IMG/VR virus record: IMGVR_UViG_3300038312_000193
Origin: a virus
Direction: 5' to 3' (one strand)
DNA: 64,000 bases
Shown here: positions 31,389-63,292 of the stretch, in pieces
Position numbering within the stretch: the first letter of the stretch is position 1
How the letters are laid out: each line of letters opens with the position of its first letter
Made by a program: the position numbers and the translations under genes
Notes under the pieces: model-generated
Database searches by the model: none
Seen by the model: the letters and a program-made list of their open reading frames with translations, nothing else
Told to the model about the DNA's origin: nothing

Positions 31389-31413
31389 TTATTCAACTCC
31401 TTTATTTATTAAG

Positions 31414-32825: not shown

Positions 32826-32828
32826 TGA

Positions 32829-35001: not shown

Positions 35002-35009
35002 TTAAAACA

Positions 35010-35175: not shown

Positions 35176-35176
35176 A

Positions 35177-36338: not shown

Positions 36339-36443
36339 ATTTCATCTCCACATTCATGAATAAAAAGTTTAGACATTTTAATTCCTCCTTAATATTTTAT
36401 ATTATAGTAAACCATTATTATATATTTGTCAACATTTATTTTA

Positions 36444-38044: not shown

Positions 38045-38185
38045 TCACATATTTGGAAAGTCTCATGTAATCTTTCATCTTCTTCTACAATAATCGTTAT
38101 AACTCCTTCTCCATTGCAAACTGGACAAGTTTTCATTTAAATATCACTCCTTTCTTTATATTATATTATACTTTTAATAGTTTAA

Positions 38186-39160
38186 TTAATCAAGTTGTTT
38201 CAAATAATTATCAATCTCTTTTTTAATTTGTGTTGCAATTGCTTTGGATAATGGAACTGGTACTGCATTAGCAACCATTTGTATTTTTTCATTTAAAGTA
38301 CCAACAAAAACATGATCATCGGGGAAACCTTGAATCCTAGCCCCTTCTCGGACTGATATAATCCTATTTTCTTCTGGATGAATTATTACTGACTTACCAA
38401 AATGCACTAAAGTATTTGACGGTTTATCATTATGTAGTCTACTATATAAAGTAGATTGAGTCTTTGATTTATGCAAATTTATTTTATATTTTTCAGGTAA
38501 GCATTCCCAATTACCACCAGGAGGAATATAAGAAATTTTATGTATAGTCTCTTCTTTACTGTTTCTTCTATCTAGTTGATTAGAAACATTATCATTTAAT
38601 CCTTTGAACGCATCTCTTATAGTCAAATATTTAATTAATGGCTCTGGATGTTTTATAATTCCTATCCTGCTGCCAATAAATATAGCTCTCTTTCGTATCT
38701 GTGCTACTCCATAATCATAAGCATTTAAAACTTTAACTTCAATATGATAATCTGGCAATCGTTCTTTAAACTCTTTAATAAATAGACCATCTAAAGCAGT
38801 TATTACTTGGGGAACATTTTCATAAACAAACACCAAAGGATTAACTTCTTGAACCTTATGTATATAACTTAAAACTAAACTATTTTTAGGATTATCTAAT
38901 AATTTTGAACCATTCTTTCTATTGGTATTAGATAAACTCTGACATGGTGAACCTCCTATGACAACATCAGCGAATCCTTTATTAAATTTTAAATTATTAA
39001 CATCATCACAAATAACTTTATGATTAAAATTATGTTCTAATGTCTTGCAGCAATCTTTATTAAAATCTGTACTTAGTATCAAGTTAAATCCTGCCTGTTT
39101 AAAACCTAGATCAAGGCCACCACCTCCTGAAAATAGTCCTAATACTGTATATTTTTTTAT
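38186..39160 (-). CDS. C5-cytosine DNA methyltransferase, probable ATA start
   Basis: Motif I LFSGGGG lies upstream of the track start, in frame from ATA at 39160. GSPCQ, YENV, QIRKRAI, ANAVPV. Confidence 0.9.
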   Translation of the reverse strand: MKKYTVLGLFSGGGGLDLGFKQAGFNLILSTDFNKDCCKTLEHNFNHKVICDDVNNLKFNKGFADVVIGGSPCQSLSNTNRKNGSKLLDNPKNSLVLSYIHKVQEVNPLVFVYENVPQVITALDGLFIKEFKERLPDYHIEVKVLNAYDYGVAQIRKRAIFIGSRIGIIKHPEPLIKYLTIRDAFKGLNDNVSNQLDRRNSKEETIHKISYIPPGGNWECLPEKYKINLHKSKTQSTLYSRLHNDKPSNTLVHFGKSVIIHPEENRIISVREGARIQGFPDDHVFVGTLNEKIQMVANAVPVPLSKAIATQIKKEIDNYLKQLD

Positions 39161-41336: not shown

Positions 41337-41440
41337 TTGAACCTCTCATCACTAAAGTGACGAGATTCCTGTTTCATAGACTTCGTAACCTCCATCTCCA
41401 CAGGCTTAAAATCCGATAGTCCCTACCGTACTAGTATTTA
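41337..41440 (-). mobile_element. Orphan IS200/IS605 right end / omegaRNA without tnpB
   Basis: GTACGGTAGGGACTATCGGATTTTAAGCCTGTGGAG...GAAACAGGAATCTCGTCACTTTAGTGATGAGAGGTTCAA, with terminal hairpin and TCAA end. Confidence 0.7.
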
Positions 41441-41714
41441 GATCAAACGCAAACTGTTATATGTCTATACTAATCCTAATTCCTTTATTTTATTTATACT
41501 ACATATCACCTCTTTATTTTTTGTATTTAAAGGTATTAATTTTGCTTTATTTGATACTATTATTGGTATTTCATATATCGTTTTTATAATATAATCTTCA
41601 ATAAAAAATCTTAAATTATTTAAAGGGAAAGTGACCACAATATTTTCTTTTTCTTCTATTGTTGTTTTTGATATATTGTAATAATATTCAAATATTTTTA
41701 TCATCTCCTTACTA

Positions 41715-42803
41715 TTATACCATTACTTCCTGTTTATACTTCGGACTTTCACCATACATTTCTATTGCTTTATTTATCTGCTCCTGGAATTTTTCTGCCC
41801 CATGTTTATCTATCATTTTCTTTAGCTCTTCAAACACTTGTTTCTTAGTAATTCCATTTACAATTCTCAAACCACTTCTTGCTTCAGATATTTGCCAACA
41901 ATCTTCAAAGTTAGTAATAAACATGTTAAGACCGAATTTGTTATATGCTTCTGCCTGGATTTCTTCAAAGTGAGGAACTGGCACTCTAATATTGCGGTAA
42001 AAAGTTTGGATGTCCTTTTCATGCTTTTGTCTTTTTTTATAAGGTACTATACCTTTATATTGTGATTTTGTTATATTATTTAATATTTCATATGTGCCTT
42101 TATTGGTGGATGGTAGTTTAATCCCTGTTATATGATAAAACACTTTCTTACTGGTTTTATTCCCCAAATGTAACCAATCAATTAAACATTCTTTACACCA
42201 ATGACCATATTTAGAATCGTCAATGTTATCAATATAAACAAGCAACTTAATCATATCACCTTTAAAACTACCTATTTCATCTATCCATATATTTTGCATC
42301 AAAATCATTTTATTATTATCATTATAATTCTTTAATTGTTCATTTGTCCAAGATTGAAATCCAAATACTTTTTCTTCATGTTCTTTCTTCGTTTGCTCCT
42401 GTGCGAGTTTCTCACTTATTTGCTTTTCAATTTCTTTCTGGTTTCTTTCTTGTTCGTCCTTAATGAATGATTCAATTGTTACTTCATTAGTTAACTCCTT
42501 TAATATAAGATACACAGCAAAGTTATATAAAGTCTTTTCAATTGTCCAATATGAATTATCTTTTGTTTTTAAATGGTATTCGTCTTTAGGTTTTGTATTC
42601 CCTCCTATTTTCTTACTATAGTGTGATACATTTTCTTCAAATTTTGGTATATCACCTTCTATAACTTGATTAACTACAAATTGTTTATTGGTTAATACTG
42701 TGCCGTTATAGCGTTTTTTACTATCAAGCAATTTCTCTGCTCTGGCCTTTTCCATTGGTTTCATATTATCAGTAAATCCTAAATATGTATTATCCAAATT
42801 CAT
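41715..42803 (-). CDS. Hypothetical protein (362 aa)
   Basis: Long ORF with RBS. Confidence 0.7.
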   Translation of the reverse strand: MNLDNTYLGFTDNMKPMEKARAEKLLDSKKRYNGTVLTNKQFVVNQVIEGDIPKFEENVSHYSKKIGGNTKPKDEYHLKTKDNSYWTIEKTLYNFAVYLILKELTNEVTIESFIKDEQERNQKEIEKQISEKLAQEQTKKEHEEKVFGFQSWTNEQLKNYNDNNKMILMQNIWIDEIGSFKGDMIKLLVYIDNIDDSKYGHWCKECLIDWLHLGNKTSKKVFYHITGIKLPSTNKGTYEILNNITKSQYKGIVPYKKRQKHEKDIQTFYRNIRVPVPHFEEIQAEAYNKFGLNMFITNFEDCWQISEARSGLRIVNGITKKQVFEELKKMIDKHGAEKFQEQINKAIEMYGESPKYKQEVMV

Positions 42804-44008
42804 TTATCCCACTCCTTTACTGCTCATACGCACAAATAACTTTATCACCTAAATCAATTCCATATCCTTTCCCACTTGCCAGCGGTTTAATCATATCAAT
42901 AAACTTTGATTTAGTCTTATGTTCATTCCCTGCTATATCAATAAAATCTTGCCAGTAATTCCATGTGTCATATCTATTATTTATTGTTTGTTCTAAATAA
43001 CATACTAATGCTCTGTCGGCTGGTAACGAATATGAAGCATGGTTTGTTATATTCCCCTGTTCATCAATAGATTTAATAATTGAATTTTGATTATTCATTA
43101 TATACACTCCTTTTATATTTTAGTTTTAAAGGGAAGGATATTACACCTTCCCTTATGTAGTTTACTCAAACATTCCTTCTGCATCTTCTAATGCTACTAT
43201 TAAACCATCAAATTCCTCTCCTGGCATTATATCAGCTAACTCTGTAACAATATTCAGAGATATTGAATAATCATCTGCCATATATTTAAGATAATCTTCC
43301 CGGTTCTTATAACCATTTGCCTGAAAATCTTTCTCTGTTAGTTCGCTCATTTAATACACTTCCTTTATGTAATATTTGTTTTTATCCTACATTTATTTTA
43401 TACTTATATTGTAATGTTGTCAACAGGAAAATGAGATAAATCATGATACAATGTCCACCATCAACCGTATAATAATTATAGGGTTTTAATTCTTCTGGAA
43501 TATCATCAAAATATTTAATTGGTTTTATCATATGTTTTATATCTTCTAAACTTTTTCTCATATCAAACTCTTCTCCTTTCTTTTCTATTGTTAAAAACTG
43601 TTACGCTTTAAAAATCGTTCTTCCTATTTTATGATTAATAACCTCTTGAATTTCATCATTTGTAAATACTGCTTCTGTTCCATTTTCTTCAGCCAACGCT
43701 TCAAATAATTCCTCTGATCTTTCTTGTAGTACAATATGCCATTTTTTTAAGGATTCAGGTGTAAATTCATGTAAAAATGTATTTTGTGTAAATATCGTTC
43801 CACTATTCAAAATACCAGAAAATTCATTAATATCATTATAAATATCAACATCAATTTTTTGTTTTCCTTCATGATCTAATCTATATTTTACAATCATAAT
43901 ATTTTTCATTTTCCCAAGCTTACCCGTGTTTTTAATAATTGCACGAGTGTAATTTAAAAATTTATTAGAATTCCCTGTTATTTTCATATTAACCTCCAAC
44001 CTCCTATT

Positions 44009-45049
44009 TTACATTCTAATTTCTTTGCTAATTGGTGGAAACTTACTTAAATAGGCAATTGCTCTTTCTTCAAATTTTGTAAGTTCTCTTACATTATACC
44101 ATCCTTTTTCACTTTCAAACATCTGCCAATATTTTTTACCTGTTTCTTTATCTGCTGTTGCCAGCCCACCCTTTTCTAACCCTTTTCCCACAACATAATT
44201 CGGATTAACTGTATACCCAAAATCAAATATGTTTCTACATTGGAATTGTGCTTTTTCTTCTGTTGCCGGATCAATAATTTCAACTATAGCGTAAGGATCT
44301 TTTTCTTCACCTTGAGAATAACCCTTTTTAATAATTTTAACATTCATTGTTTTCTTTTCTTCTTCGAGTTTTTGTTTTACTGCATCCTCTTCTTTTTTCT
44401 TTTCAATTCTACCTTGCAAAATATCGGTTAATTTTATTTCAAATCCAGTAACAACAATATTTTTATAACCATGATATTTGTGTGATTCTTCGTTATATTC
44501 AGGGTTTAGGACATCTCCAAGATCTTCAATTGTGCCAACAGATTTTTTAATTTTTCTTTCAATGTATTCACAAGAATTTGATACCCATTCATCACTACCC
44601 ATTACCTGTTTAATAGCTTTTTTCATAATTTCTTGTTCAAGTCCATTTAAATCTTCAGGTAAATTTCTTATCCAAGGTTGATAATGAGGCCAATCACACC
44701 CAACAATTCCAAAATGAATATTCCTTTTTCCTTCTACTAATTCATTCACTACTTGATTTATGTTTTGTTCCCTTTCTGCTTTAAATTGTTCAAAAAGATT
44801 TTTAACTTCTGTTAATATGTTCTCTGGTAGTCCTACACCATTAACTTTTTTACCTTTTATTTTTACGTCATATAAACTCATTGCATTATGCTGCGGTAGG
44901 AATTCAGAATTATAATAGTAACCTTCGGGATCATGTTTGTTTTCATGGATACCTTCAATTTTATGCGCCATAACTAATTTACCATACTGATTAAGTCTAG
45001 GATTTTTAAAATAAAATTTAATCCCTTGTTTTTCAAATTCAAAATTCAT
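44009..45049 (-). CDS. Hypothetical protein (346 aa)
   Basis: Long ORF with RBS. Confidence 0.7.
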   Translation of the reverse strand: MNFEFEKQGIKFYFKNPRLNQYGKLVMAHKIEGIHENKHDPEGYYYNSEFLPQHNAMSLYDVKIKGKKVNGVGLPENILTEVKNLFEQFKAEREQNINQVVNELVEGKRNIHFGIVGCDWPHYQPWIRNLPEDLNGLEQEIMKKAIKQVMGSDEWVSNSCEYIERKIKKSVGTIEDLGDVLNPEYNEESHKYHGYKNIVVTGFEIKLTDILQGRIEKKKEEDAVKQKLEEEKKTMNVKIIKKGYSQGEEKDPYAIVEIIDPATEEKAQFQCRNIFDFGYTVNPNYVVGKGLEKGGLATADKETGKKYWQMFESEKGWYNVRELTKFEERAIAYLSKFPPISKEIRM

Positions 45050-45509
45050 TTAAATCATTCCTTTCATTTTGTTTGTTATTCCTGTTTTACTTCCGATTTT
45101 CCTGTTGACCTTATGATTAATTATATCATGTTGGCAATATTAAAATCAAGTGTTTTTATAATATATTTATTTTATTAATTTGATATTGAGTCCAAATGTA
45201 CTTTTTATAATCTTATTACAAAAGCTTCAAAAAAGTAATTAGTATCCTTAATTTCATAGTCTGCTAAATGTGTTACTTGCCTCAAAACTTCGCCAATAAA
45301 ACCAAATGCCACTTCTTTCCCGTCAACAAAAATTGATAAATGACTAGCATTAAGGTTGTTAAAATTTATATCTCTTAGTTTCATTTCTCCTGCCTCCTTT
45401 CAACATGAAATCTCCTTTTAAATCATCATGATAAATGCCTTGTTTGATAATGTTTTTATTTTATTAATATAATTATATACTATCAATTTAATACTGTCAA
45501 CATGAATTA

Positions 45510-46268
45510 TTAACTTACTTTTCTTTTATTATATTTTCTTTTAGGTTTTCTATTTATTTCTTCAAATTGTTTGTAATCTTCGGTTAACCATTCAAATATT
45601 TTCTCAAGTCTTTCTTGTGTAAAATTTGAATTATTTTCATTATACCATTCATCTAAGGTAAACTTCCATTTCTGATCATTACAACTACCACAAGAAGGAA
45701 TACAATTATTTAACCCATCCCCTCCTTCATGATTAACATGTTCTTTATGTAAATCAATTTTTTGTGGTTCACCAGCATATATACGATAATGATTTTCTAT
45801 AGGAAGTCCACAATAAGCACATTGATAGTTAAAATATTTTTTACAAGCATCCCATTCTTGTTTGGTTATATTATGGTTTTTATGTCTTCTATCTTCATTA
45901 TATTTAATCATTTTTTCAGGATATTTTTCAAAATATCTTTCAAAATACCCTCTTTCTCTTAACCCTTTTTGAATTTTTCTTCTTGCAAATAATCTTTCTG
46001 GTTTCCTATCATATTTTCTTTGATTTTCTAATTGTTCTTCATAATTATCTCTCTGTCTTATATCTGCTCTAATAATTTCACATCTTTTACAAGATGGATT
46101 TAAACCATCTTTTTTATTTTTAACATTTGAATAAAAATATTCATTAGTACATAATAACCAATCATCTTCTTCTGGAAAATAAATTTGATGATTTACACAT
46201 TTTTTATATAAAACTCCATCTATTTCTTTATGATAATCTTCGTAATTATATTTCGTACCTCTTGACAT
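45510..46268 (-). CDS. HNH endonuclease
   Basis: CAYCG...HKEHV...NCIPSCGSCN. Confidence 0.8.
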   Translation of the reverse strand: MSRGTKYNYEDYHKEIDGVLYKKCVNHQIYFPEEDDWLLCTNEYFYSNVKNKKDGLNPSCKRCEIIRADIRQRDNYEEQLENQRKYDRKPERLFARRKIQKGLRERGYFERYFEKYPEKMIKYNEDRRHKNHNITKQEWDACKKYFNYQCAYCGLPIENHYRIYAGEPQKIDLHKEHVNHEGGDGLNNCIPSCGSCNDQKWKFTLDEWYNENNSNFTQERLEKIFEWLTEDYKQFEEINRKPKRKYNKRKVS

Positions 46269-46287
46269 TTATTATATAATCCTCCTT

Positions 46288-46584
46288 TTATACTTCTTTT
46301 AAAAATTCTCTCACATCAAAATCAAACGCTACTGCCAAATGTAACGCTTGATCAAACATAGGAATATTATTAGCGGTAGGTGCTAACCAAGAATATACAT
46401 TCGGGGAGGTATATCCTAACTCAATTATTTGTTTTGGTTTAATACCATACTCGGTTAATATTCTTTTGAGATTCTTCTTTATTACTTGCCTATCAACTAA
46501 ATTATACCGATTAATTAATTCTAAAAACTCTCTTTGTGTTTCTAATTTGTTTATCTGGTTAATTCTTGTTTCTAGAGTTTGCAT
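46288..46584 (-). CDS. XRE-family HTH regulator
   Basis: KKNLKRIL...SPNVYSWL...IPMFDQALHLAVAFDFDVREFL. Confidence 0.7.
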   Translation of the reverse strand: MQTLETRINQINKLETQREFLELINRYNLVDRQVIKKNLKRILTEYGIKPKQIIELGYTSPNVYSWLAPTANNIPMFDQALHLAVAFDFDVREFLKEV

Positions 46585-47994
46585 TATTGATACTCCCTTC
46601 TTTGCTTGTAAATTTATTATATCATAAAATTAATAAGTCCCAATATTACGGCATTTCACCTGCGACCAAACCCAGGATTTATAACGATTCTGTTATGCTA
46701 TTTTCTCAATTAACCAAACGCCTGAATGAAACCATGTTTCTTTTGCTATACCTAAATCAAAACAATCTTTAATCATTCTGGCAACATCTAAATCAAAATC
46801 GTTATCCTCTAACCAATTTCCTGCTGATCCCTCAAATACTATTTTATTATCGTTGGTTACTCTTATGTTCATCTGTTATACTCCTTTCAAATTTTATTTA
46901 ATTACCTTTTCGATTATATTTCTCCACTCTTCCACTCTTGATTGATAGGCAATTTTTTCAGCATCTTTTTTATTTTCAAATACATCAATAATCTTTAGTA
47001 CTTCGTTTTTAACTAATCCAATCACAATATAAACTTTTTTATTTTTCATTTTTCAACCTCCTGTTATTATAAAATGATTGATTTATCATGATTTTATTAA
47101 ATATATGCCTCCCACCAAACCATCTCAAAATTAAATCCTCCAATTATAACCCCACATCTATCACAATAAAATTTATTACCTTCTTCACGCAAATAATCTC
47201 TTTGTGTCCAATACGCATCCCAACAATGTTCATTTTCTATGAGATAATCTATCAATTCTTGTTTGGTTTGAAAATGTTTCCACATTATTTATCACTCCCA
47301 TTTAAATTTATGCCATACACATCTTTAACCCATCTTTTAATTGTATGACTATAATTTATAAGTCCTTCCCAATTACAAACTTCATCAAATACCTGGTCTG
47401 GTGATAATTGATTAAATATATTATCTTTACTCTTATCTGTTGCCTCTAAATCTTCTCGTTGTCTTAACTTTTTAAGAATATACTCAGGATATGCCATAAT
47501 ATATCTAACTCCTTTTCATATTTTATTGGCTTAATGCCCATTCCCATTGACAAGTAGGAGAAATTTTACCATAACCATAAGGATGATCTATTAATATTCT
47601 ACTATCAATTATTGTTTTTATATACCTTAAACCTTGGCAGTATTCTGATATTTCTATAATAGGATTATATTCTATGTTATTACGATAAAAAGTACAGTTA
47701 TGAACATTAATACCCTGGATGTAACTTTGTACTATTTCATCTTCTTTAGTAACTTCACCTATACCAATATGATTAAATTGTCCACAAGCTGAAGTAATTA
47801 TATATTTGTTACCATTGTCCTTTTCAAAAATAAAATATGCTTTCTTGTTTATGTACTGGTTATCTAACAACCAATATAAGTATTTTTTTAAATTAATCAT
47901 TTAAACCACTCCTTTATAATTTATTATAGTTATATTATAAAGGAGTGTATTCATATTGTCAACATTATTTTCTTATTGTATTTATATTTTTATT

Positions 47995-48738
47995 CTAGTT
48001 ATACATTTCACCAAATGCTTTTGCCATATAAACAGGTACTCCATTACCTATCGCTTCGTATAAATTATAAATCCATTGTCCTTTAGTTTTATTTCTTCCA
48101 GTTTTACTATTAATTTCATTTAACCATTCTTCAGGAACATTATACCATTCTTTAGGTATTATAAAACCTTGATGATAAGCACATTCTTCTAAGGTTAGTC
48201 TTCTACCATAAAATCTACTTGCTCTACGTTTATCTTTAGTGCTACCTTTATATTCTGTTGCGGTAATACACGGACAAATATCTTTAAATGTTTTCTGATA
48301 ATCACTATATATATCGGGTAATTTATAATTCCCACCAATCATTCTATTCCTATTTTGAATTGGATGCTCAAGAAATTGTGCTGCATTAAATGGTTTACCC
48401 CAGGTTGGCATTCTCCCTTGAGGGATTACATTTTCAACCCACAAAATATCTTTTTTAATATTTAAACTCCAATTAAGAAAATCTCCTGCATATTTTGAAG
48501 TTGGTTCTCCTTGTGTTCTAGCGGAACTAAATTGTTGACATGGAGGGGATGCCCAAACAGCATCAAATTCCTTTAAATCAATTTGTGTTGCATCTGCTAA
48601 AATACAATTGCCACTACCTACAAATTTACTTAAATAATGTTTCCAAGGATCAAGTTCATATCCTGTACATTCATGTCCTGCTTGTTCTAATCCTAATCTA
48701 GCAAGACCTGCTCCATCAAATAATACTGCTATTTTTAT
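47995..48738 (-). CDS. Compact C5-cytosine DNA methyltransferase, probable ATA start
   Basis: In-frame extension IKIAVLFDGAGLARLGLEQAG...WASPPCQ...WVENV from ATA at 48738 after AAGGAGG. C-terminal AIGNGVPV. Confidence 0.85.
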   Translation of the reverse strand: MKIAVLFDGAGLARLGLEQAGHECTGYELDPWKHYLSKFVGSGNCILADATQIDLKEFDAVWASPPCQQFSSARTQGEPTSKYAGDFLNWSLNIKKDILWVENVIPQGRMPTWGKPFNAAQFLEHPIQNRNRMIGGNYKLPDIYSDYQKTFKDICPCITATEYKGSTKDKRRASRFYGRRLTLEECAYHQGFIIPKEWYNVPEEWLNEINSKTGRNKTKGQWIYNLYEAIGNGVPVYMAKAFGEMYN

Positions 48739-48912
48739 ATGTATTTCCTCCTTTAATTATTATATTGTATTTTTAATGCATTAAATATTTTACACAATCA
48801 TCACTCCTTTATAAATAAAAATAGTATTAATTTCATTAGTTTTTTAAACTAAATCCACCAATACCATTAAAATATTTGGCGTTTATTATTTAATTATATA
48901 TTTATAATTAGT

Positions 48913-51900
48913 TTATTTAAAATTAACTCCTTGTTTTTTTAATATAGAAAAGATATTTTTTAACTGCCATTTTAAATTAATTCCTAATTCAATGGTCATT
49001 GTGTTATCATCCTCATCTGCAATGCTCATAAAATCCTGATATTCTGGTTGTAGTTTTAATGCTATTACATTTAGTTGTATTTGTAATGCTACATTCTTTT
49101 CATGTTCAAAAATCTTTAATACCTTTTTTGCTTTTTCTATTTCTTGTTTCAATTCATTATTTTCTTTTTTAAGTATTTCTAATTCTGTCATATTAGTCAT
49201 CTCCTTTAAAAATCGTTTATTAACTATATATATTATAGTAGCAATATATATAGATTGTCAATCACATATTTATATTATGTTTATAATTTTTATTTAATTC
49301 CTTAATAACCAGGTTTTAATATTAATAGAATACATTGTTTGAACCAAACGATTCTTCTATGCTGTTATAGGTAATTCCCATTGATAAGTATTTTCAGTCC
49401 ATTTATAACCTAATTCTATTAAGAATATATGAAAAAGTTCTTCTACCTTATCCCATAATTTTTCTTCGTTATCGGTAGTTATTTCTGCACATTTTGTGTA
49501 AATATAATTATATTGTTCATTACTTAAATTTACTTTTTCATAATCTTCGCTATTTTTGGTAGATTCTAATATTTCCGTTGCTCTTTTATTCATTATTAAC
49601 CCCACCTTTCTGTTATACATCAAATACCTATTTGGTTTACTTCCAACTGGCTACACATCCTAAATGAGATATTAAATAATCTTCGTTGGCAAATCTAAGT
49701 GTATAGCTTTTAAAGGATGTATTTTTAAATGATATTTCATTAGAATTTTTTAAATAAGTTAATTTGAAACTTGCGAAACTTCTTGATTTATAATTTCTTT
49801 TTGCAATAATGCTGTTATCTACTATTTCAAAATTATGTGATTTTACATGTTCTTTTAAGTATTCATACATTTCATTTATATTTTTCATTTTATCCTTCCT
49901 TTCAACTCATGACCAACTCTGAATTTTATACTAACACAACATTTATACACTTAGGGTAAATTTTATCTTCTCCAATGACAAGTAATGAGTACCATTTATT
50001 ATTTTTAAACCACATGCCAATATATAAATCCTTTAAAGTTTCAAGTTTCCAGTCTGTTATTATTTTTATGTTATTATTATCTGTCATTTGCAATTCATAC
50101 TCATTAAATTGTTCTTGATATTTATCGTATTTTTCACTAATCATTATATACAGTTCTTTTGCTTTGGTTTTTGATGTAAAAGGTATTTCAAAAACTACTT
50201 TTCCATCAAAGTAATGTAATCCTTGCAGTATATACGATCCTCTTTTAGAAGAATCTTTTATTATGTTAAACATACTTATATTTTTGTTCTGATAGTTAAA
50301 ACCTTTTACCAAACAATTAACTTTATATCCTGCATGATAAAATGGTTTTGTTCCTGCATATATACTTTTACCTTTAATAATATTAATTACTTCTCTAGAT
50401 ATTTCCCTTAATTCCTTTTCAGTAAAAAAATTTAAACCTTCCATTTTTAACACTCCTTCAATCTCTTTTATTCTTACTTATGCTCCATTTTCCAAAACTT
50501 AAATCATGATAAAAAAGTTATTTGGTTTTGTTATATTTAGTATATCATATCCGCAACATGAAAGCAAGTACTAATTTTATATTTTATAAATAATTATGCT
50601 ACTTTTTTGGTTTTATTGGTCTGTTTGTAATCTGCTATTATATTTACATCCTGGTTCTTTATCGGATCATGCCATAAATATTTTACTGTTAAGGCACATA
50701 CACCAATTAATATCCATCCTGCTATGGTATATAAGGTTAATATTGTTGCTGTGTTTATGTAATCCTGCGTTGTAATTATCATCCCTATCATTGTATTTAT
50801 ACCTCCTTATATAAATCCTTCCCAGGTTTTAAACCATTCTGAATAATCATAAAGTAAACCACTTTTGTTATAGCAATTTTTTATTACTATTCTGTTCCAA
50901 TTTACTTCTCCACTTTTAAATAAGTCTATAGATACCATACAATCAAGAATACATTGACGGTCTTTATAGATTAATAAGGATTGAGGTTTTAATGTGTAAT
51001 AATCTGCTACAAGTATGGCCTGTTGTAATTCTTCGGGCAGATCATCCCAATTCTCTGTAATAGTTTTTAATTGTTCTGTGGGATGTGATAAGTTAATTAT
51101 TGTTATTGACATTTGTTATACCTCCATCCGTTTTAATCTTTTTTTAATCAGATTTAATTCATCTTGAAAGAATTTAATCTGGTTAGGGTTATTTTCTTCT
51201 TGATGATATTTAATTGCTCCCTCAGTATAACCTTTACGATATAATAATTCCTCTTTGCTCAAACTTTTAACTGTGTTATATGCATATGAATTTTTATATT
51301 CAATTTTTTCATAACCTATATCATTCATTCGATATACCTCCAATATTTTTATATTAAGGTTTTTGTGCAGAACCTTTAAAACTGCTCTGTTATTGCTTTA
51401 AAACAACCTTGTATATAATCCTGTTACTGAGGTAAAAATGTCTTCTAACATATCGGCATAAACATCTTTGTATTCCTTAATGATTACAATCTCTTCATCA
51501 TAAATTTTAATTCCCATTGCTTTATACTCTGGTGTTTTACATTCAGGTTTTAAAGTCTTTTTAATTCTGCTGAATGTCAAGTTATAGAGATCAAGGCCAT
51601 TAAGTTGTATTTTAAGATACTGAGCCTTTGAATTATTCCTGGTTAGTTTGATGACAAGATATACATACCCTAAATCATCATAACCGTAATACTGGAATTT
51701 ACTGCCTGTCATTATTAAAAACTTACTACCTCCAATTTGTTGAATTATTGTTCTGTAATCACCTATTCTAATTTCATTCTGTTCTGTTATTGCCATTATG
51801 TAAAACCTCCTTATAATCCCCATTTTGCAATTTCAATTTGTGTATGTTTCCGTAGTAAGTAATTAGTACAATCTGTTATTAAACTTTTGAGCCATTTTAT

Positions 51901-54900
51901 CGCCAGTTCTTCATTCCAATCTAATTTTAATTCATAATCTTCAATTTGGTATTCGAGAAATTGCAAGGATTTTAAAACCTGTTCTACGGTCTTGTAATCG
52001 TCTGTTATTTCTCTTTGCATCATTACCTTATAAATAAAATCATCCTTTGTATATACCTGTTCTGCCTGATCATCTTTATATCTGTTATTCCATGATTTAA
52101 CATTCAAGCAATGTAAATAAAATAACTGTTCGGCTCTTTCTTCTGGAAATTCTGTATGTCTTTGTATAAATTCCATCTCACACATTCTAAACATTTGGAT
52201 ACCGTTTAGTAATCTTGTGTATCCTTTTAAATCATCAATCAAAATAACACTCATTGTTATACCTCCTTTTCTATCGCCCAATCTGTCCATGAATCTCTTT
52301 CAATCACAAATAACTGGTTGTTAATCTTTATCTCTATTCCGTCTTTTAACGGACAATCTGGTTCACCTGTAAATGTATTCCAATGATTGACATAAACACC
52401 TTTTGAATATCTATCATTTATATGTCTACTGTACAATCTGCTTGTATTCTTATCTTTGTATATCTCCCTGCAATAACCTTCTTGGTTTTCGATTTTGATT
52501 AAATCTAACATTCGCATACACTCCTTATATACTTTATTTATATTATTAATATGATTAATATATAATAAAATACATACTGTCAACATGTAATTATTTTGAT
52601 TTTTATACTTCATATTTAAAGGGATGTTACAACATCATAACACCCCTTATAACTTCTATGCTATTTCTTGTTCTCCTTGCACCTGTTCTTGTTTTCCTTG
52701 CCATTCTTCAAATAATTCCTGTAATCCATTTAACCTTCCATTAACTCTTTCTTTTTTTGTTGATCCTGCGCCACAATTATTTTTATAAGCATCTCCTGGT
52801 TTACTGTTTTTACTGTACCATGTAATGAAGTTTGTAGATTCATGTTTACTCTTTTGGGTATTTAAAAATCCTACCATAGACGTTATGTTAATCTTAGTGC
52901 AGAATTTATTATATTTATTGTTAAAGCTATCTGCTATTACTGTAAATAATTCCTCTGTGCGGTTTAATACTTCATCTGTTATTGTGTTGGTCACAAAGAA
53001 TTTTTCAACATCCTTTGCTGCAAAGGTACAAAAATCAAGTCCTGATACTAAGATAATTGATTGAAGTATAGTCATTTGTTTATCTGATTTCTTTATTGCT
53101 CCTGGTGTAAAGTGAGCAACATCGGTAAATAGTTTATGTTCTGTTATCATTCTCTTAACAAATTCTCGTACATTTTTCTTAGCTGATACTAAAGCAAGAT
53201 GCTCTTTACTTACGACTTTACCATTATTCAAACGATAAAAAATATCATTTACGATTGATTCTTCATCATCATTATCGTCAAGTTCGATAAGTTTAAAGGC
53301 CAACATGAAACTTTTGATTTCATCCTGCACTTCTTCTGGTAGTTCTGAAAATTTCTTACCAGAGATATTGAATTTTTCACCTGTAGATTCAAGTTTGATT
53401 TGTGGGAGTTCTGTAAGCTGCCATTCATCGTTAATAAAAGAGTGAATAATAGTAAGACGTTGGAGGCCATCAATAATACTGTAAGTATTCCCTGATTCTT
53501 GTTTCTCTTGTATGGCATAAATATCAGGCACAAACATTTCTAAAATAGAATGGATTAACAATGACTTATCTTCATTTTTCCATTGTCCTGCTGGTCTTTG
53601 CACAGGATTATCAAAAACTATAGTTCCTTTATTAATCATTGTGCTAACCTGCTTTACTGACCATGATAAACTTTTTCTTTGCATTCCGAACAACTCCTTT
53701 TAATTAATTTCTATCTTATGTTTATTTTATACCTTTGGTTTCATGTTGTCAACATTAAAATAAGAATAAACGATAATTATTTTTTATCCTGTTGGTTCAA
53801 GATCATGCGAAATACACCAGGAACAAAATACATCTATATTAGTTCCTATTCCTTGTTGCTGTCTTACTTGTTGGTAATTATTCCAATCACAATACCAACT
53901 ACCAGCTTTGTAATAGGTCTTAATTCCGTTTACATAGCGGATTTTTAGATTACTAGTTGACTTTGTTTTGTTGCTCTTGTTTTTTGTTCTCATTTTATAC
54001 ATCTCCTTTTTATTTTTTGTATTTTAATCCTTCTTAATATGTCGGCTCTGTCATTGTCGGCACATTAAGCAGGATTAAACCTGCTTATAATTTATATTAT
54101 TGTTATGTCAAAATTCCACTCAATACAATCCTTTGTTAAATATCCATTAATATGATCTCCTTCTCTTCCTGTTAATTTCCAGCCTATTTGTTTAAAAAAC
54201 TCATAGTATTTATAAAAATATTCATTATTTGACTTTTTAAATATTTCCCATTTTTTACCGTTTGCTTTATCTGTAATAGTTTTAATCAACATTTTTTAAC
54301 CTCCTCTTATAACTCGTTACCTAATTGTCATTTGGTTTAATTATATTATTTGTTTTGCTAATGTTTCCGTTAATGGGAATCTAACTTGCTTAAATACATT
54401 GTCGTAAAACCTTGGATAATTAATATAGTCTGGAATAATCTCGCTACCATCAGGTAATAAAACTGATTGACTATAACTGCCCAATGACTTGATGCATTCC
54501 TCAATGCTGTTATAGACTTTTATACAATCAAAAGTATTGTGTTCAATCTCATAGGGTGATCTGTTATTCCATGCCCAATCATTAATTTCTCTGATCCGCA
54601 TTTTACCATCATAAAAAGCTTGATAATGCATTATTATCCTTCCTTTCCTTCTCCTAAAATTTTACTGTACATGAAATTTGCTTTCTATCATGTTATTTTA
54701 ATGTAATTAATGCCATTCGATTAAGATCAATTGTTAATATATTGAAATGATCTAGTTTTTTAATTAAATCTGCATCATACCAGATAGGTTCTCCGTTTTC
54801 TTCAATCTCTTTTGTTATTCTGTTAATCCAATATTGCTTATTAAATACTTTAGTTTTCAATTTGTTCAACTCCTTATTTGTTTAATTCGTTATATTGATT

Positions 54901-57900
54901 ATAAACCCTGCTATTCATATTGTCAATATGATTTTGCTACTATCTTTATATTTTTTATTTAATTCTCTGAAAAATAAATGCCATTATTCAGGCATTCACA
55001 AAACGGCAAATAGTCATAAAATCAATCTTTTGTAATGTTCGGGAATTGTTCTGTTATGCTGATTTATTACTTATATATTGATAATATTTATCTGGTAATT
55101 TTACCATTAATAATAACCTGTTTGTTATTTGTCTATGCTTTTTGCAATGTCTCCATTGTTCTATATGTGCTAATTCGTGACAGATTACTTCTTCTAATGT
55201 TTGACCGTTTAATTCCCATGTGCTGGTAATACTATCTAAAATAAAGTATGTATAGCATTCATGGACAAAAAATTCATCAATTGTTATATGGTAAATATCA
55301 AATTGGTTTCTCCAACATATTCCTAATGATTCTTTTGATTTGCCTTTTAAAGTGCTATGATCCATAATTGTTATATTAATATCCATAGTGCATTCGATTT
55401 GAGTTAATGTTTTTTGTACTGTTTGATCAAAATATTCTTGCTCTGTTATCATGCTTTTATACCTCCTTTCTTTATAATATCATATTCCTGCTATACTGTT
55501 ATGCTGTTTTACTTAATAATTTCCGTAGTTCTTGTTCTGTTATTTGATGTTGCACAAATAAGGTTATTAATTTAGTTTTCGTCAATGTAGCATTACCTCC
55601 TTCCTGCTGTTATTGTATTTAATTCCTTTTTAGAGTGCTAAACTGTTATTGTTATTTATATTATGTATATGTTTAGCACTCAGGAAAAGAATTAAATTAT
55701 ATTGCTAATCTTTGTTTAATCTCCTGCTCTTTTTCAAATCCTGTTATGTCAATTTCTCCTGATTTAATACTGTTTTTTAAATCTCTGATAGCACACGGAC
55801 AAAAACCTTTTTTATTAAATGTTTCATTTTTTACTTCTTGCCAGAATTTTTTATCTTCCATTCTTTTCTTTTCCTTAATTGTTTTGATTCTATTATTAAA
55901 TTGATTTAAAGTATTTTCTAGTGCTGAGTCAGCCTTTTCTATTCCGTATTCTTCTAATACTTTATTGTATCGGTTTATTACCTCTTCTTTTGTGATTCCT
56001 GTTAGTTCGGCTGTTATTGCTGTTTTAACTATTTGATCAACCAATTTGTTAAATTGTTTTTCTAACATCTTTTATTATTCCTCCTTTTATTATGCTATTT
56101 CACTTTTATATTGTATTCTGTTTATTAGATCATTACATAGTTCTGTTATAGCATTGGCCTGTTTTTCACTCTCCGCATTAAAAGGTATTTCGTCTTTTAT
56201 TAATTCTAAACTGTTAATGTTATACTCAAAAATGTATTCTGGCATACAGTAGGATATTGTCTCAGCTAACATATTAAATCTTCCCAGGATAACAGGGTAT
56301 TCTTGCCAATCAATATTATTTTCAATTTGTATTATATCCTTTGTAGAGATTAAACCAGATAGCATATTTTTTGCTACTCTGACCATTTCTTTTTCTACTA
56401 TATTGTTTTTATATGCCTGATAATAATATGAGTAATTACTAAGTAATTGATCTTTTTCTTTTTTGTTCATCCTGTTATACCTCCAATCTATTTATTGATC
56501 CAATCGGTTATTTGGTGTTATTGTTATACTAATTCTAAAAAATCAATTTTAATATTTCGAGTAACACCATTTACTTTTACTTTAGCAATATTACCAGATT
56601 CTTTTGTATTTATTGCCATTACTTTTCCTTTTTCAATTGGTACTAATTTGATTACAGGATCAAACTTTTTAACTCTGTTATTATATTTTTCATTAGTCTT
56701 TACGGTATCACCTATTTTAATATTCATTTCGTTACCTCCTTCTGTTATTTGTTTTTAAATTGCATGTAGTCATTAATATCTAGCAAGCTGTAAACATAAC
56801 CTAATAAACTGTTATGCTTATATATTGCGTATGTTTTTTCGTTTTGATCGTATATTAAGGTTATGTTATGCTTATTTTCGTAGTGTTTAATTGCTTGGTG
56901 TTTACTCATTTTTATTAACCTCCTTCTGTTATTCTGTTATTAATTTTATCATATCAGTAATATGATAGCAAGATAAATTTATTTTGTTGTTATAGTGTTA
57001 TGCTGTTAATAAATCGTTATATCTTACTACTCCTTTTATATAGCTCCCGATATCTCTAATTTTAGCAGGTAAATAATATGGCAATTCTTTTTGTTGCAAT
57101 GTTTTATTGAGGTTATACCATTTTATAAAATAGTTATGTTGATATTCGGTGAATGATTTTATTAGTTTTTGTATTTCTTCAATTGTGAGTGATCCTTCAT
57201 ATTTTCCGTATATGCTGTTATTGTTTATTAATTTGTCAAGTGATACATATAATTCGTTAATTTTATAACAATAGTCTTTTATTTGTTCTTCAAGTAAAAA
57301 CATATACTGGTTATAGTCTGATTCTGTTATTTCTATCATATTGTTATCACCTCTTTTCTGTTATAGTTTATTATAATCCTTTATAAATAGCACTACAATT
57401 TATTTTATTACTGTAATGCTATCTAAAAAAATTATAATTCCGTATGTAGTAATAACCTAGCAGGATCAAGACGGTTAAATATATCCTGCACATTAACCAT
57501 GTTGTCGCTGTTATAAAATTTTTCAGATTGTAAATACTGGTATAGTTCTGTTATTAGTTCGGCTGATTCTGTTATACGGTTTTTTAGTTCCTGGTTATCT
57601 TCCTGTAATTGTTTAATATAATTCATCGTGTTACCTCCTGTTATTTTAGTTTTCTATAAACTCTACTAAATGTAAGCCTTGATGCCAATTATATTTTGAT
57701 ATCTGACCACTAAAAATATTATAATCAGCATCGACAAACAAGGTAATACCATTTACATCTTTTTTTATTTCTTCCCGATATGGCTTGATATATGTTTTGC
57801 CTAATAGATGATGTGTATCACCTGTTATGTCGTAAACATCCGCAAATAAACCATTATCAGTTAATACGCTTGCTTTAATATCAGTAATATTAATCATTCT

Positions 57901-60258
57901 GTTACCTCCTATTTATGTAATATAATTTTATTTTGTTGTTCCCAACCTTTTAACCAGTTATTTGTTATTTGTTCTTTTAATTCGGGAAATGTACTCCATA
58001 ACCATTGACAACATGTGTCAAGTGCTGGTTGCCGATATCCTGCCTTACACCTGTAATTTTTACCACAAATAAAAGCAATATTTTCTGCTTGATTTTTAGT
58101 GGTTTTTAAAAGTGATTGATAATTCATTATATTACCTCCTATTATAATTTTACTGCTATAGTTCCATTACGAACCCAACAATCCGAATTGCCTATAACTG
58201 TTACTATTGTTATAGTTCTGTATGTTATATTGCAGACTACGCTAAAATTATTTTGTTTGTCCATGATGAAAATATCACGGTTAGAACCACTGTAATCTGT
58301 TATGGTTTTTTGGCCTAATGATAGGATTGATCCTGTTACCTGATACAAGTCAATTTGTCTTTCTTGTAGTCGCTGTTCTGCGTGATTTGTTAAGCGAATA
58401 GAGTAGGTTTTGTTTTGGATTGTAAATGACAATATCATTATTCCTGGTTTCCTCCTTCTGCTACTGTTATGGGAATTATAGGATTTTTGGGTAATGGTAC
58501 TATTATTATACATTGTTTCACCTCCTTGTATGTTAATAAATCCTTTATTGAGTGCTATATATTTTAATTATATTACTGTTATACTGTTATGCTTTTATTA
58601 GCACTCTAAAAAGATTTAATTATATTGTTATTGTGTATTATGCCTCTACTAATTCAAAATGATGTCCACTATATCCTTTATCTAAAATACTAACAGAATA
58701 TAATTTGCCAGTTTTACATGGTGGCAGGTTATAATTTGGATATTGTACATGATCATGTGGTGGAAAATAAGCAAAATTGTCTTTTGTGGCCTTCAACATT
58801 ATTTTTTTACCGTTGTTGTTCTCATGTTGGTATACTACCTTGGAATTTTCAACGTGTGCAGTTTCAAATACTTCATGAGGTTTGTTATTCATGCCTAGAT
58901 AAATTATTTTTTTCATTATTTGATCCTCCTATACTTCTATTATTTTACTTCTCTGTTATAGTTTTTAGAGGTTATGTTAATACCCTCTATAGAGCCATCA
59001 TTTTATATTACCATTTTATGATGACTCTAACAAGGTACTAATTATGCTATTGCTTGTCTTTGTTCTCTTTCATCTCTGTTAACCATTTCGCTACCATATA
59101 AATTGCGAATTTCTTCTATAGTTAATTCTTTTTTGGATTTTTTGCGGAAAGTTCCAGGTTTCCAGTACCAAGCTAATTTTTTGCCTGAGAAGGTGAAACC
59201 TAACTCTTTTAATATGTCTTTATGTTGTTTGGTTTCGCCTGTTATCCAAAGCCATGTGCCACAAAGTTCTATTGTTATTCCTTCAAGGTTTATTATTTTG
59301 TCTATGATTTCTCTGTATCCATCAAAAGGATCGAAATTTTGTGTATACTCTTTTTTGGTTTCATGGTTGTAACCTGTAAAAGTTTTGTTCTTGAATGCTT
59401 CATACTGTAGGTTAATCTGCTTCATTGTTTCGGTGGTATCATTGTCATGGTTATGGTCTGGATGAAATTTTTGTGCAAGTTCTCTGTAACGTTTTTTAAT
59501 TTCCTCTATTGAGTTACAATCGGAAAAATAGTTTAACATTTTTATCAATCCTTCCTTATGTTTATTTTATTGGTTTAATATCCTCTATAGAATACATTAA
59601 CTGTTATATGCTAATGTATTCTAACAAGATACTAAATAAAATATAGTTCGTTATTAACTTCCAAACTAATTGCATCCTGGTTTGATATTTCTTTTAATTC
59701 TTCTCCTATTTCTATAGCTGCTTCGATGCTATTTTCTAGGTTATTACTATAACTGAAAACTACTACTATTTTTTCCTTTATCAATTCTCCTGCTACACTT
59801 TTCCAATAGCCTAACGCCTGTGTTGATGTTGCTCCTCCGTTAACTTCACTAAATTTACTAGCTGTTAAGTCTACCATTTTTTGAATTAAATCAGTTGGTA
59901 GTTCCTGGTTGTTTTTGTCTCTGGTTGGTACATATAAACTTACTTTGTGAGATAGTTTAAAAAGGTTTTTTAAGGTTTTTTTGTTTTCGTTATTCATTTT
60001 GTTATAATCTCCTTTTTGTTTTTTATTTAAGGGAATAACCCTTATTTTTTGAATCAAATTTCGGTTTGGTGTTGAGTGGTTTTATAATCCTGCTAATTTT
60101 AATCTGGTAAACTCTTTTGCTGCCTCGGTATAAGATGTATACTTTTTGTCGTTGAATTTGTTACGGACAATGTATTCACCTGCTTCATTAATTCCTAATT
60201 GTAAGATACCTTTAAAATTAAGTTCACGATTTTTTAATACTTCAATTTTCTCTCTCAT
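48913..60258 (-). CDS. Putative early / host-takeover operon region: about 30 short, mostly hypothetical genes
   Basis: Dense co-oriented short ORFs with strong GGAGG RBSs, several strong promoters and intergenic hairpins. Confidence 0.55.
52656..53693 (-). CDS. DUF262 (GmrS/ParB-like) domain protein
   Basis: VQR..QW...SLLIHSIL, IIDGLQRLT, IFYRLNNG. Confidence 0.85.
   Translation of the reverse strand: MFGMQRKSLSWSVKQVSTMINKGTIVFDNPVQRPAGQWKNEDKSLLIHSILEMFVPDIYAIQEKQESGNTYSIIDGLQRLTIIHSFINDEWQLTELPQIKLESTGEKFNISGKKFSELPEEVQDEIKSFMLAFKLIELDDNDDEESIVNDIFYRLNNGKVVSKEHLALVSAKKNVREFVKRMITEHKLFTDVAHFTPGAIKKSDKQMTILQSIILVSGLDFCTFAAKDVEKFFVTNTITDEVLNRTEELFTVIADSFNNKYNKFCTKINITSMVGFLNTQKSKHESTNFITWYSKNSKPGDAYKNNCGAGSTKKERVNGRLNGLQELFEEWQGKQEQVQGEQEIA
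55054..55452 (-). CDS. SprT-like zinc metallopeptidase
   Basis: LGICW...LEEVICHELAH...HCKKH. Confidence 0.7.
   Translation of the reverse strand: MITEQEYFDQTVQKTLTQIECTMDINITIMDHSTLKGKSKESLGICWRNQFDIYHITIDEFFVHECYTYFILDSITSTWELNGQTLEEVICHELAHIEQWRHCKKHRQITNRLLLMVKLPDKYYQYISNKSA
58142..58513 (-). CDS. DUF4258-like small protein
   Basis: LTNHAEQRLQERQI...ITIVTVI. Confidence 0.5.
   Translation of the reverse strand: MYNNSTITQKSYNSHNSSRRRKPGIMILSFTIQNKTYSIRLTNHAEQRLQERQIDLYQVTGSILSLGQKTITDYSGSNRDIFIMDKQNNFSVVCNITYRTITIVTVIGNSDCWVRNGTIAVKL
59042..59548 (-). CDS. J-domain (DnaJ-like) protein
   Basis: EEIKKRYRELAQKFHPDH...MKQINLQYE. Confidence 0.85.
   Translation of the reverse strand: MIKMLNYFSDCNSIEEIKKRYRELAQKFHPDHNHDNDTTETMKQINLQYEAFKNKTFTGYNHETKKEYTQNFDPFDGYREIIDKIINLEGITIELCGTWLWITGETKQHKDILKELGFTFSGKKLAWYWKPGTFRKKSKKELTIEEIRNLYGSEMVNRDEREQRQAIA
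59632..59997 (-). CDS. DUF3574-like small protein
   Basis: GGAT...GYWKS...KEKIVVV...NQDAISLEVN. Start moved to MNNENK after AAGGAG. Confidence 0.5.
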   Translation of the reverse strand: MNNENKKTLKNLFKLSHKVSLYVPTRDKNNQELPTDLIQKMVDLTASKFSEVNGGATSTQALGYWKSVAGELIKEKIVVVFSYSNNLENSIEAAIEIGEELKEISNQDAISLEVNNELYFI

Positions 60259-60299: not shown

Positions 60300-60324
60300 A
60301 TTCTACATCGCTTTTAAATATCCT
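60300..60324 (-). promoter_or_regulatory. Sigma-H-like promoter (AGGA-N17-GAAT) heading the early operon
   Basis: Minus strand reads AGGA-tatttaaaagcgatgta-GAAT upstream of the first short gene (ATG 60258). Confidence 0.45.
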
Positions 60325-61232
60325 TCTTTTTTATAAATTTATTTTATATTTTTAATGTGCTAGAAATGCCTATATTACGGGATTTGTAGGGTATGCATAA
60401 ATATTCATAAAAATAATTTTTTATACATTTATATGGTTTAAATGCCTATATAATGGGGTTTGTGAAATATTAGTACGTTGATGTAAGGTATACATTAAAT
60501 CATGTATATTATACAGGTTTATGAATAGATATGCATTGATTGAAGTAGGTTTATGCTCTTTTATACCCTATGAGGGTATGTAGAAATGGCTTAATATTGG
60601 GGGTTTGTGAGGTATGGAAAAATGAGGTTGTGTAGTGCGTTTTAAGGTATGTATATTTATTTTATTGATATAATAGTCGTGAGAGTGGGAATGTTGGGTG
60701 TAGGTGGTATAATGTAGGTATGGTGGGATTTTTGGGGATTTTGGTTTGTACAAGGTTTATGCATCGATAATGTATATTTATATTGTGGGTTTGGTTGTGG
60801 CCTGGATTGATTTATCTAATATCTTACTAACTAATCATTATAATAATATTGTATCGTCTTATATTTATTATATAATAAGTTATTATATTTTTATGTTGCT
60901 ATCTTATTATCTTATTATATTACTAACATATTATATTATTATTATGTGATATTATTATGTTGATATACTAACATCATATTAAGTTTATATAATTGTATCA
61001 ACATATCATATTATAATATTACCATATTATATTCGCATATTAATATTTTATTATTTTAACAATTTAATATCATATTATTATAATAACTTAATATCTTAAT
61101 ATTATAATAACATAACTTTTTATTATCTTATAATTATAATATGATGTTGGTTTAATATGGTACTAATATTATAATATAGTGGTATAGTTAGGTTATATGT
61201 TAGTTAGATTGTAGGATATTAAAATAATAGGC

Positions 61233-61260
61233 AAAAAAAATAAACCCCATGCGGGGTTTA
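61233..61260 (-). terminator. Intrinsic terminator
   Basis: TAAACCCC-GCAT-GGGGTTTA followed by T8. Confidence 0.8.
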
Positions 61261-62844: not shown

Positions 62845-63292
62845 AGCATAGGTAATTATATTATAGCATAGTTGGTTGTGATTTGCAATTTGTTTATATT
62901 ATAGATATAATGGGATTTATAACTGTATTAGTTGAAGTAGTACAGTTAATACAATATTACTTCGATGGCAAATTTCCTGTTATCAAATCCGAATATTTAG
63001 AAGTTTATCTAAATATCTAAATATTATTCGTTTGGGCGTATTCTGGCAGGTTGTGGCCTGATACTATGAGTAGATACCAGGATTAATCAGGATCAATTCT
63101 ATATCATTAGTTTGTGCAGCTTAACCCGTATTTATTCCCTTCATTCCTGCCATAATGCAGGATAACACATATTATCTAGTATTAATTAATAGCTTGTAAA
63201 TGGCTATATATCGGTATTTGTAGCTATATTCAAACATTTATTACATTACCAATATATTATTATCCAGGCTAGACGGGGGTACTTTACAAAAA

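Follow-up and report, generated by a model that had tools for sequence, protein, structure and literature searches.

The 64,000-nt stretch of DNA analysed here (the window), from IMG/VR virus record IMGVR_UViG_3300038312_000193, carries a short word, CTGTTAT, that saturates one strand of its early block and is missing from that strand over the first 40 kb. The + strand of the window has 54 copies of the word and the − strand 5; shuffles gave 14.0 ± 3.5 copies, with a maximum of 23, for both strands pooled. All long open reading frames (ORFs) between 1 and 62.8 kb lie on the − strand, the first + strand gene beginning at 63833, and the sense-strand word is therefore ATAACAG. At least ten other phage or plasmid-like elements carry a one-strand ATAACAG array in their early block. 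The array, together with the removal of the word from the same strand elsewhere in several of these elements, points to an undescribed one-directional control signal. A literature string search for the word returned nothing relevant, and no published description of it was found.

A preliminary description of the sequence had reported about 38 copies of CTGTTAT in 51387–59607, with 30 of them in 55.0–59.6 kb, about 10 more in 40–50 kb, near-absence from 1–40 kb and a single reversed copy. These counts are borne out: 39 copies lie on the + strand in 51387–59607 and one is reversed (at 56289), exactly 30 lie in 55.05–59.6 kb and 14 in 40.2–50.1 kb, and 1–40 kb holds none on the + strand and 4 on the − strand. 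The per-strand comparison of 7-mers with a Markov model that the same description had proposed places ATAACAG first among the 7-mers of 40–60 kb (z=15), with 53 sense copies observed against 4.4–8.6 expected from order-1 and order-2 models. The observation is thus confirmed, and is stronger than first stated. The core of the word is ATAACA (89 vs 9 copies), followed at position 7 by G (53) or A (25). An alignment of 178 sites from four phages shows nothing conserved outside the heptamer apart from a weak C at −2, and the information content is flat from −30 to +36 around them.

The word overrides coding sequence. It is intergenic in 24 of its 54 placements in the window, and lies in frame 0 (ATA-ACA-G) in 21 and in frame 1 in 9; frame 2 never holds it because that frame contains TAA. 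When the early coding sequences (CDS) were shuffled among synonymous codons, the 30 observed copies compared with 9.0 ± 2.5 (maximum 18 in 300 shuffles), so that the enrichment persists under a codon-aware model; nor is the word uniform along the genome, with 53 sense copies in 40–60 kb against none in 1–40 kb. Early genes contain 26 I-T-[EDGAV] tripeptides (4.9 per 1000 codons) and the genes of 1–40 kb contain 11 (1.0 per 1000), and 21 of the 26 are written ATA-ACA (7.0 expected) as against 0 of the 11. The excess is roughly five-fold; the preliminary description had remarked that the word forces Ile-Thr-Glu/Asp/Gly into unrelated genes. In frame 1, the word is carried by 9 of 17 x-N-S/R tripeptides in early genes and by 0 of 19 in the genes of 1–40 kb. 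The word thus shapes which codons the early genes use and what proteins they encode, and it is avoided downstream of the block. The proposal of an oriented signal under selection is therefore fully supported, and the signal recurs in many other elements.

The nearest complete relative of the window is G009:C25, a circular contig of 149,326 bp that falls in the bin of a Clostridium sp. metagenome-assembled genome (MAG), with a polymerase 86–89% identical to that of the window; outside its array (Table 1), the remaining 129 kb of its cluster strand hold 3 further copies. Scans of IMG/VR with the doublet ATAACAGNATAACAG and afterwards with a triple brought up other elements, and further contigs were reached through the DUF4258 protein encoded in the window. 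The triple-word scan returned mostly coding tandem repeats (e.g., L344 and L308), which were discarded. The word-bearing contigs obtained by the IMG/VR scans have no nucleotide similarity to the window, yet each has a co-oriented cluster, and in every contig examined whole the cluster lies on the A-rich sense strand. It starts just past the point where two gene blocks diverge in G009:C25 and G006, and ~5–10 kb downstream of that point in G007 and G008; in the window and G009:C25 its density thins away from the head. By sequence comparison, the word is conserved where the genes are not, as G006 and G007 have just 10 ORFs in common and the G006 polymerase is 26% identical to that of the window. 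Among the contigs found through DUF4258, L225 encodes ParM-like, FtsK-like (FtsK/SpoIIIE) and relaxase-like proteins, ArdC, SprT and a methylase. Both L225 and L226 carry DUF4258 homologues (64–65% identical) and a word array beside ParM-like genes, and the system therefore occurs also on plasmid-like or phage-plasmid elements. No comparable polar word was found in phages c-st and SPbeta (1–100 kb). G001, a 227-kb IMG/VR contig (L075–L086), has no large cluster and 4 copies in its last 2.5 kb, and its array may be cut off by the contig end.

Table 1. Word arrays and associated features of the window and other elements; paired counts are cluster strand:opposite strand.
Element	Feature	Position	Strand	Counts and remarks
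Window	Densest field	55051..59607	-	30 sense ATAACAG, 6.5 per kb; one operon of ~15 small genes
Window	Thinner continuation of field	40247..54567	-	23 sense copies, 2.2 falling to 1.3 per kb away from head
Window	Isolated head copy	62977..62983	-	Non-coding, upstream of block; context TCGG-N6-ATAACAGGAAAT, then inverted repeat
Window	Purged zone, replication and middle genes	1..40000	-	Sense ATAACAG 0 vs 5.4 expected; ATAACA 9 vs 35.0 expected
Window	AT-rich 0.9-kb stretch	60300..61250	.	No credible gene; iteron-like repeats; directly upstream of dense operon
Window	DUF4258 gene (predicted RelE/ParE-like fold)	58142..58438	-	Inside dense operon; Pfam PF14076, E=1e-7
G009:C25	Array	90.7-106 kb		64 copies; 36 in first 5 kb; 10 in one 360-bp stretch
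G006	Array	53.9-73.5 kb		65:10; ~60 copies in these coordinates
G007	Several clusters	20.7-57.9 kb		45:8
G008	Two clusters	0.5-1.6 and 12.7-16.8 kb		20:8
G011	Array	Within 15 kb		52:2
G010	Array	First 12.6 kb of 197 kb		25 copies
L226	Array			33:0; 48.5-kb contig, found via DUF4258 protein
L227	Array			32:0; found via DUF4258 protein
L228	Array			35:0; found via DUF4258 protein
L225	Array			12:2; plasmid-like 70-kb contig, found via DUF4258 protein

Outside the arrays the word is removed in a strand-specific manner, as seen when observed and expected counts are compared per strand and per genome compartment. DNA strand and gene sense were told apart in the relatives; the window, which holds no opposite-strand block, shows same-direction purge alone, and its opposite strand is normal over 1–40 kb (26 vs 26.3 expected). 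Cluster-strand ATAACA in G009:C25 stands at 0.0–0.6 of expectation in every 10-kb bin outside the cluster, and at 0.0–0.3 in 10 of 12, as against a mean of ~1 on the other strand (bins 0.1–2.3). The 68-kb late block of this phage runs in the opposite gene direction, and there cluster-strand ATAACA numbers 11 vs 47.9 expected, a stronger depletion than for any other of the hexamer's 30 permutations. Read as sense sequence, the late genes contain TGTTAT 9 times (shuffle 29.4 ± 3.8; 0 of 300 as low) and ATAACA 36 times (36.5 ± 5.4; 147 of 300 as low). Genes running with the cluster contain ATAACA 10 times (22.0 ± 4.0; 0 of 300) and TGTTAT 28 times (25.7 ± 3.7; 229 of 300). Since the late genes purge TGTTAT and keep ATAACA, it is the DNA strand, and not mRNA sense, that governs the avoidance; a rule acting on mRNA would need two different words to be avoided in two gene sets. 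In G001, both gene blocks are likewise purged of ATAACA on one strand (0.18 and 0.27 of expectation), as is the late block in G006 (0.26) and in G008 (0.30). One rule describes the data from the relatives, namely that the word is tolerated on one physical strand inside the array alone. The preliminary description had left open whether the signal acts on DNA or on RNA; the strand-specific purge favours a DNA-strand-level signal over a purely mRNA-level tag, with RNA as the main rival. No opposite-strand genes that could uncouple strand from transcription were found inside the clusters.

The reading preferred here, put forward tentatively at somewhat short of an even chance, is that ATAACAG (core ATAACA plus G or A) is a cis-acting stop or brake signal that belongs to one DNA strand, lies at the early genome end and is read by a one-way machine. 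Dozens of weak, co-oriented copies saturate the first 15–20 kb of the early arm, most densely at its head, with the same strand kept word-free elsewhere in the relatives tested; the array would form a zone in which a machine reading that strand is stopped, braked or attenuated. The likeliest such machine would be a helicase-nuclease, encoded by the host or by the element, that enters at the early genome end and follows a Chi-like logic; it is the first choice because terminal clustering of co-oriented Chi is the nearest documented behaviour. The array would then protect, and render recombinogenic, the end that is injected first and exposed after terminase cutting. Less probable machines would be those of packaging or replication, or a late RNA polymerase that has to traverse the genome unhindered and come to a halt at the array. 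Purging of the interior is what would be expected of a stop signal that must not be met early, of which the T7 class II word ATCTGTT is one example. Genomes of the host genus contain the 7-nt word about once per 4 kb, which is too unspecific for a classical operator and typical of words read by translocating enzymes.

The position of the array at a physical DNA end is suggested by the related phage c-st, the record of which has 404-bp terminal direct repeats; there the early block begins exactly at the left virion end. The yopQ homologue and the polymerase gene are 27 kb apart in c-st and 28.6 kb apart in the window, and by synteny the corresponding end would lie at ~59–63 kb, just upstream of the dense operon and in the area of the AT-rich stretch.

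Several observations weigh against this reading. Synteny with c-st is the one basis for placing the physical end; c-st itself lacks such a word, and no sequence similarity was found between its end and the head region of the window. The word is unremarkable in the putative host, the MAG G009, to which the host assignment is made by binning: in 221 kb of its ORFs the word ranks 54 of 210 words of the same composition, the bias of 38 sense to 22 antisense copies is explained by composition, and host sense strands have fewer copies of CTGTTAT, the orientation expected to act from the head, than of ATAACAG. The Chi precedent predicts no interior purge of copies in the active orientation, and the purge is uneven, with 0–53 kb of G006 unpurged (0.90) and no clear heptamer purge in G010. 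Word density drops in a step at the edge of an operon, and neither the window nor G009:C25 has the word in the two leading genes of that operon, which looks like a transcript-level pattern. No obligatory reader gene was found, and the ORFs common to the word-bearing phages gave no universal candidate.

The foremost alternative places the signal in RNA. AUAACAG on early mRNAs would be a cleavage site for an RNase, or a site for an RNA-binding protein, by which early anti-defence operons are co-regulated and then shut off or silenced in the style of RegB acting on GGAG, with the DUF4258 protein or a MazF/PemK-like protein as candidate reader. This explanation is possible though unlikely, and it stays a serious rival because of the operon-level density step, the bias toward intergenic sequence and start codons, and the presence of a gene with a predicted RelE-like fold. 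Within the early block the word always falls on the sense strand, downstream genes of the same direction avoid it, its density is ~3-fold higher in intergenic sequence, and 14 of the 54 copies are placed between −31 and +12 relative to a start codon. Tandem doublets with a pitch of exactly 8 nt (ATAACAGNATAACAG) make up 7 of 222 gaps in the pooled clusters of the window, G009:C25, G006, G007 and G008, ~10 times the expectation from local density, and predicted RNA accessibility at the word is marginally raised (p 0.04–0.12). The presentation of the word in hairpin loops, mentioned in the preliminary description, is not significantly above controls (27/125 vs 66/425, p=0.13), a result that speaks against an RNA-level tag. 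The late mRNAs do so too, as they are purged of UGUUAU and have normal AUAACA, and avoidance follows the strand in four phages. The head copy may moreover lie outside any transcript. As a separate observation, large-loop hairpins with the common stem GAGTGCTA...TAGCACTC occur between unrelated genes in the window and in G009:C25 (window 58560–58615 and 55640–55690; L219 11380–11450), and each loop holds 1–3 copies of the word.

Co-occurrence supports neither of the candidate RNA readers as obligatory. DUF4258 has more than 100 homologues at 56–100% identity and is present inside the cluster in 8 of 11 word-bearing elements; no match was found in G006, G010 (99% complete) or G011, and hhalign and hmmsearch found no hidden copy in G006. 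The structural model (predicted local distance difference test score 78) has its best fold matches in RelE, ParE and HigB (Z 4–5.1), with T4 RegB (2hx6) at Z 3.5, a range in which a match may reflect common arrangement alone. A Foldseek search of the PDB with DUF4258 gave nothing at E <0.001, and a profile search of PDB sequences gave nothing. DUF4258 is a candidate sequence-specific RNase and not an obligatory companion of the word. PemK/MazF was rejected as an obligatory reader, as it occurs equally in G001 and G002, which have no large cluster, and is missing from the window.

An improbable explanation is that the array pauses or terminates an RNA polymerase running antisense to the early block, such as a late polymerase of the YonO type. 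CTGTTAT would then act on the non-template strand in the manner of the T7 class II signal, the late operon would be kept word-free, and read-through would be halted at the genome end. The strong purge of TGTTAT from the late-block sense strand (9 vs 29.4) agrees with this, and a weak RdRP match in L227 provides a YonO-type candidate in the relatives. Against it, purging of the same strand also extends over the 60 kb of early-direction genes that separate the late block from the array, terminators would be predicted at the point of convergence, and the array lies inside genes that need to be transcribed the other way. In addition, YonO-type and T7-type polymerases are unrelated; no T7-type single-subunit RNA polymerase gene was seen in the window, where no search was aimed at one.

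It is slightly more doubtful that the word is the ordinary Chi of a Clostridium host AddAB enzyme, accumulated by elements that rely on host recombination. A 7-nt polar word common to unrelated elements of one host group would suit such a role, terminal clustering has precedent, and no Clostridium Chi sequence turned up. In 31 genomes of the host genus the word occurs about once per 3.5–4 kb, or 1.5–4.4 times the reversed-word control. The rank and composition-driven skew of the word in the host genes, given above, are not those of a Chi, which would be over-represented and skewed in the host chromosome. The classical host Chi or FtsK-orienting polar sequence (KOPS) reading raised in the preliminary description is accordingly unsupported by the putative host genome. 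Known Chi words are G-rich. Copies in the active orientation are also purged from the interior, unlike the scattered copies of LLS and P1. KOPS and SpoIIIE recognition sequences (SRS), the guides of FtsK and SpoIIIE, are skewed genome-wide on both replichores, and what is found here is one local cluster with depletion elsewhere. For a partition function, also suggested earlier, nothing was found in support.

Least probable are stoperator-like roadblocks, at which a prophage repressor bound to an asymmetric duplex word would block elongating RNA polymerase in lysogens: the phage is a temperate one of SPbeta-like kind that encodes a YopQ/MrpR-like pair, the word is avoided in genes that the plasmid-prophage state requires, and L5-type stoperators are asymmetric, numerous and oriented with transcription (PMC9283540), but the word, only 7 bp long and with no flanking information, has hundreds of copies in a host genome, 30 of the 54 copies lie inside genes, and the purge of the opposite arm, which has no array, follows the strand and not the direction of transcription.

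Other candidates were tried and rejected. As a promoter, the word has no partner element at fixed spacing and a promoter scan showed no excess over shuffles; the single late promoter used by YonO in SPbeta was also weighed in this rejection. Pairing with the anticodon loop of tRNA-Asn was considered, where the loop would be CUGUUAA because the presumed tRNA-Asn genes of the host MAG read GGCTGTTAACC; TTAACAG, which fits that loop, is not enriched. A trans-acting small RNA with a CUGUUAU seed was rejected, as no conserved non-coding copy was found and the common contexts are coding. A resemblance to the SpoIIID box was likewise rejected, as the invariant T of the word breaks the consensus and neither AAAACAG nor AGAACAG, the variants that fit it, shows enrichment.

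The dense operon is bordered downstream by a hairpin and T-run at ~54980–55030, followed by a perfect TTGACA-17-TATAAT promoter (54926–54898), and the promoter scan found no strong sigma-A promoter for it or inside it. Upstream of its first gene, at 60290–60330 (−), stands GAAGGATA-N12-GTAGAAT, which, as a reading of the sequence alone, we take to fit the B. subtilis sigma-H consensus. The AT-rich stretch upstream of the operon contains three C-rich iteron-like repeats (motif ...ataggcattt...) and long ATAAT/TATTA runs, and is preceded by a strong terminator (61238–61263); the GC skew changes sign at 60–62 kb, and the stretch is a candidate for an origin or a genome end. The head copy may or may not be transcribed from a weak promoter match at 63200–63171. 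The context of this copy recurs in G009:C25 (89733), G006 (73508) and L227 (7355) in the general form TCGG-N5-7-ATAACAGGRAAT followed by phage-specific palindromes, and otherwise these places have no common sequence. Between 54800 and 60400, related-phage contigs of other runs align with the window gene by gene, with joints that fall at gene borders and are not molecule ends. Several joints lie within a few bases of word copies (e.g., 56741/56752, 57639 and 59238). Judged from these alignments, the early arm is a mosaic of exchangeable cassettes.

The window, which comes from fermentation metagenomes, appears from its gene content to represent a large temperate phage of Clostridium type, SPbeta-like; it had no nucleotide match in the phage collection, and a 31-mer taken from it had no match in IMG/VR. 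Its DnaE-type polymerase is 55.7% identical to that of Clostridium phage c-st, where it is annotated as SPbeta YorL-like, and a DnaB-type helicase and an NAD-dependent ligase are also encoded. A YopQ-like protein (439 aa) and a tyrosine-recombinase-like protein (341 aa) are encoded as a pair at 31800–34148 (−), as in SPbeta and c-st. The former label is taken from the c-st annotation, and the latter protein is called MrpR-like by analogy and from a weak MrpR_C_cat match in L227. By this analogy the pair, with its MrpR/YopR-type candidate, may be the master-repressor module. A TnpB-type transposase gene (35177–36217, −) has homologues at 56–65% identity in G001, G006 and G007, and directly downstream of it lies a RAGATH-18 RNA (35059–35131, −; 70 bits), the one RNA match in an Rfam scan of the window, which found no tRNAs. 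Near the position syntenic to this pair, G009:C25 has a 283-aa PemK-domain gene (112892–113743) without a homologue in the window. The small early genes of the window include those for J-domain, GmrSD_N and DUF4258 proteins.

Genes for takeover and anti-defence, which evolve fast, sit in the early arms of large phages and phage-plasmids. A signal that is conserved while these genes turn over, that rewrites codons and amino acids and that is excluded from one strand elsewhere must therefore serve a process central to the establishment of infection or to genome maturation. The prospect that it represents an undescribed class of genome 'address label' on phages and phage-plasmids, made up of a polar-word array at the first-expressed or first-entering arm and same-strand removal elsewhere, and read by a one-way reader, is close to evenly balanced. 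The identity of the reader could reveal a new nuclease-control word for low-GC Firmicutes or, alternatively, a sequence-sensing step in packaging or replication, or a new form of early-gene timing. The signal is in addition a simple, computable marker of the early end and of orientation in uncultured phage genomes.

Among known systems, the endoribonuclease RegB of phage T4 targets GGAG in early mRNAs. The likeness lies in a short word that is enriched in early and avoided in later transcripts, and in a protein with a predicted RelE fold among the early genes. Here, however, avoidance goes by DNA strand and not by mRNA sense, the 7-nt word is not centred on ribosome-binding sites, and the RelE-fold gene is unmatched in three elements. 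The T7 class II word ATCTGTT occurs as one copy near the concatemer junction and acts in the non-template strand (bioRxiv 10.1101/2021.01.11.426313). It resembles the present word as a structure-free heptamer with the core CTGTT in common and, on the preferred reading, in one-strand action at a genome end, but it is a single site and not an array, and its reader is a T7-type polymerase, an enzyme that the present phages are not known to have. Cluster A mycobacteriophage stoperators are 13 bp long, mostly intergenic, 20–30 per genome and oriented with transcription in both arms (PMC9283540). Like the copies in the ATAACAG array they are numerous, asymmetric and dependent on orientation, and they extend over kilobases of temperate phage DNA; in contrast, ATAACAG is 7 bp long, has 30 of its 54 copies in CDS and forms no array in the opposite arm, a pattern unlike that of operators. 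The closest comparison is with phage Chi. In phage LLS, 20 of 23 Chi sites are in the active orientation and concentrated near one end, in phage MD8 the two orientations number 32 and 0, and both phages rely on RecBCD (PMC12315714). In LLS, MD8 and P1 the word is that of the host and is abundant in the host chromosome, and its active copies are spread through the phage, whereas the present word does not stand out in the putative host and, beyond the array, has been removed from the strand that bears it. Density differs as well, at up to 6–10 per kb in arrays of the window type versus about 1 per 1.9 kb in LLS. In both cases a short, asymmetric, co-oriented word is gathered toward one end (for ATAACAG the putative end at the head of the early block), runs through coding sequence and is positively selected.

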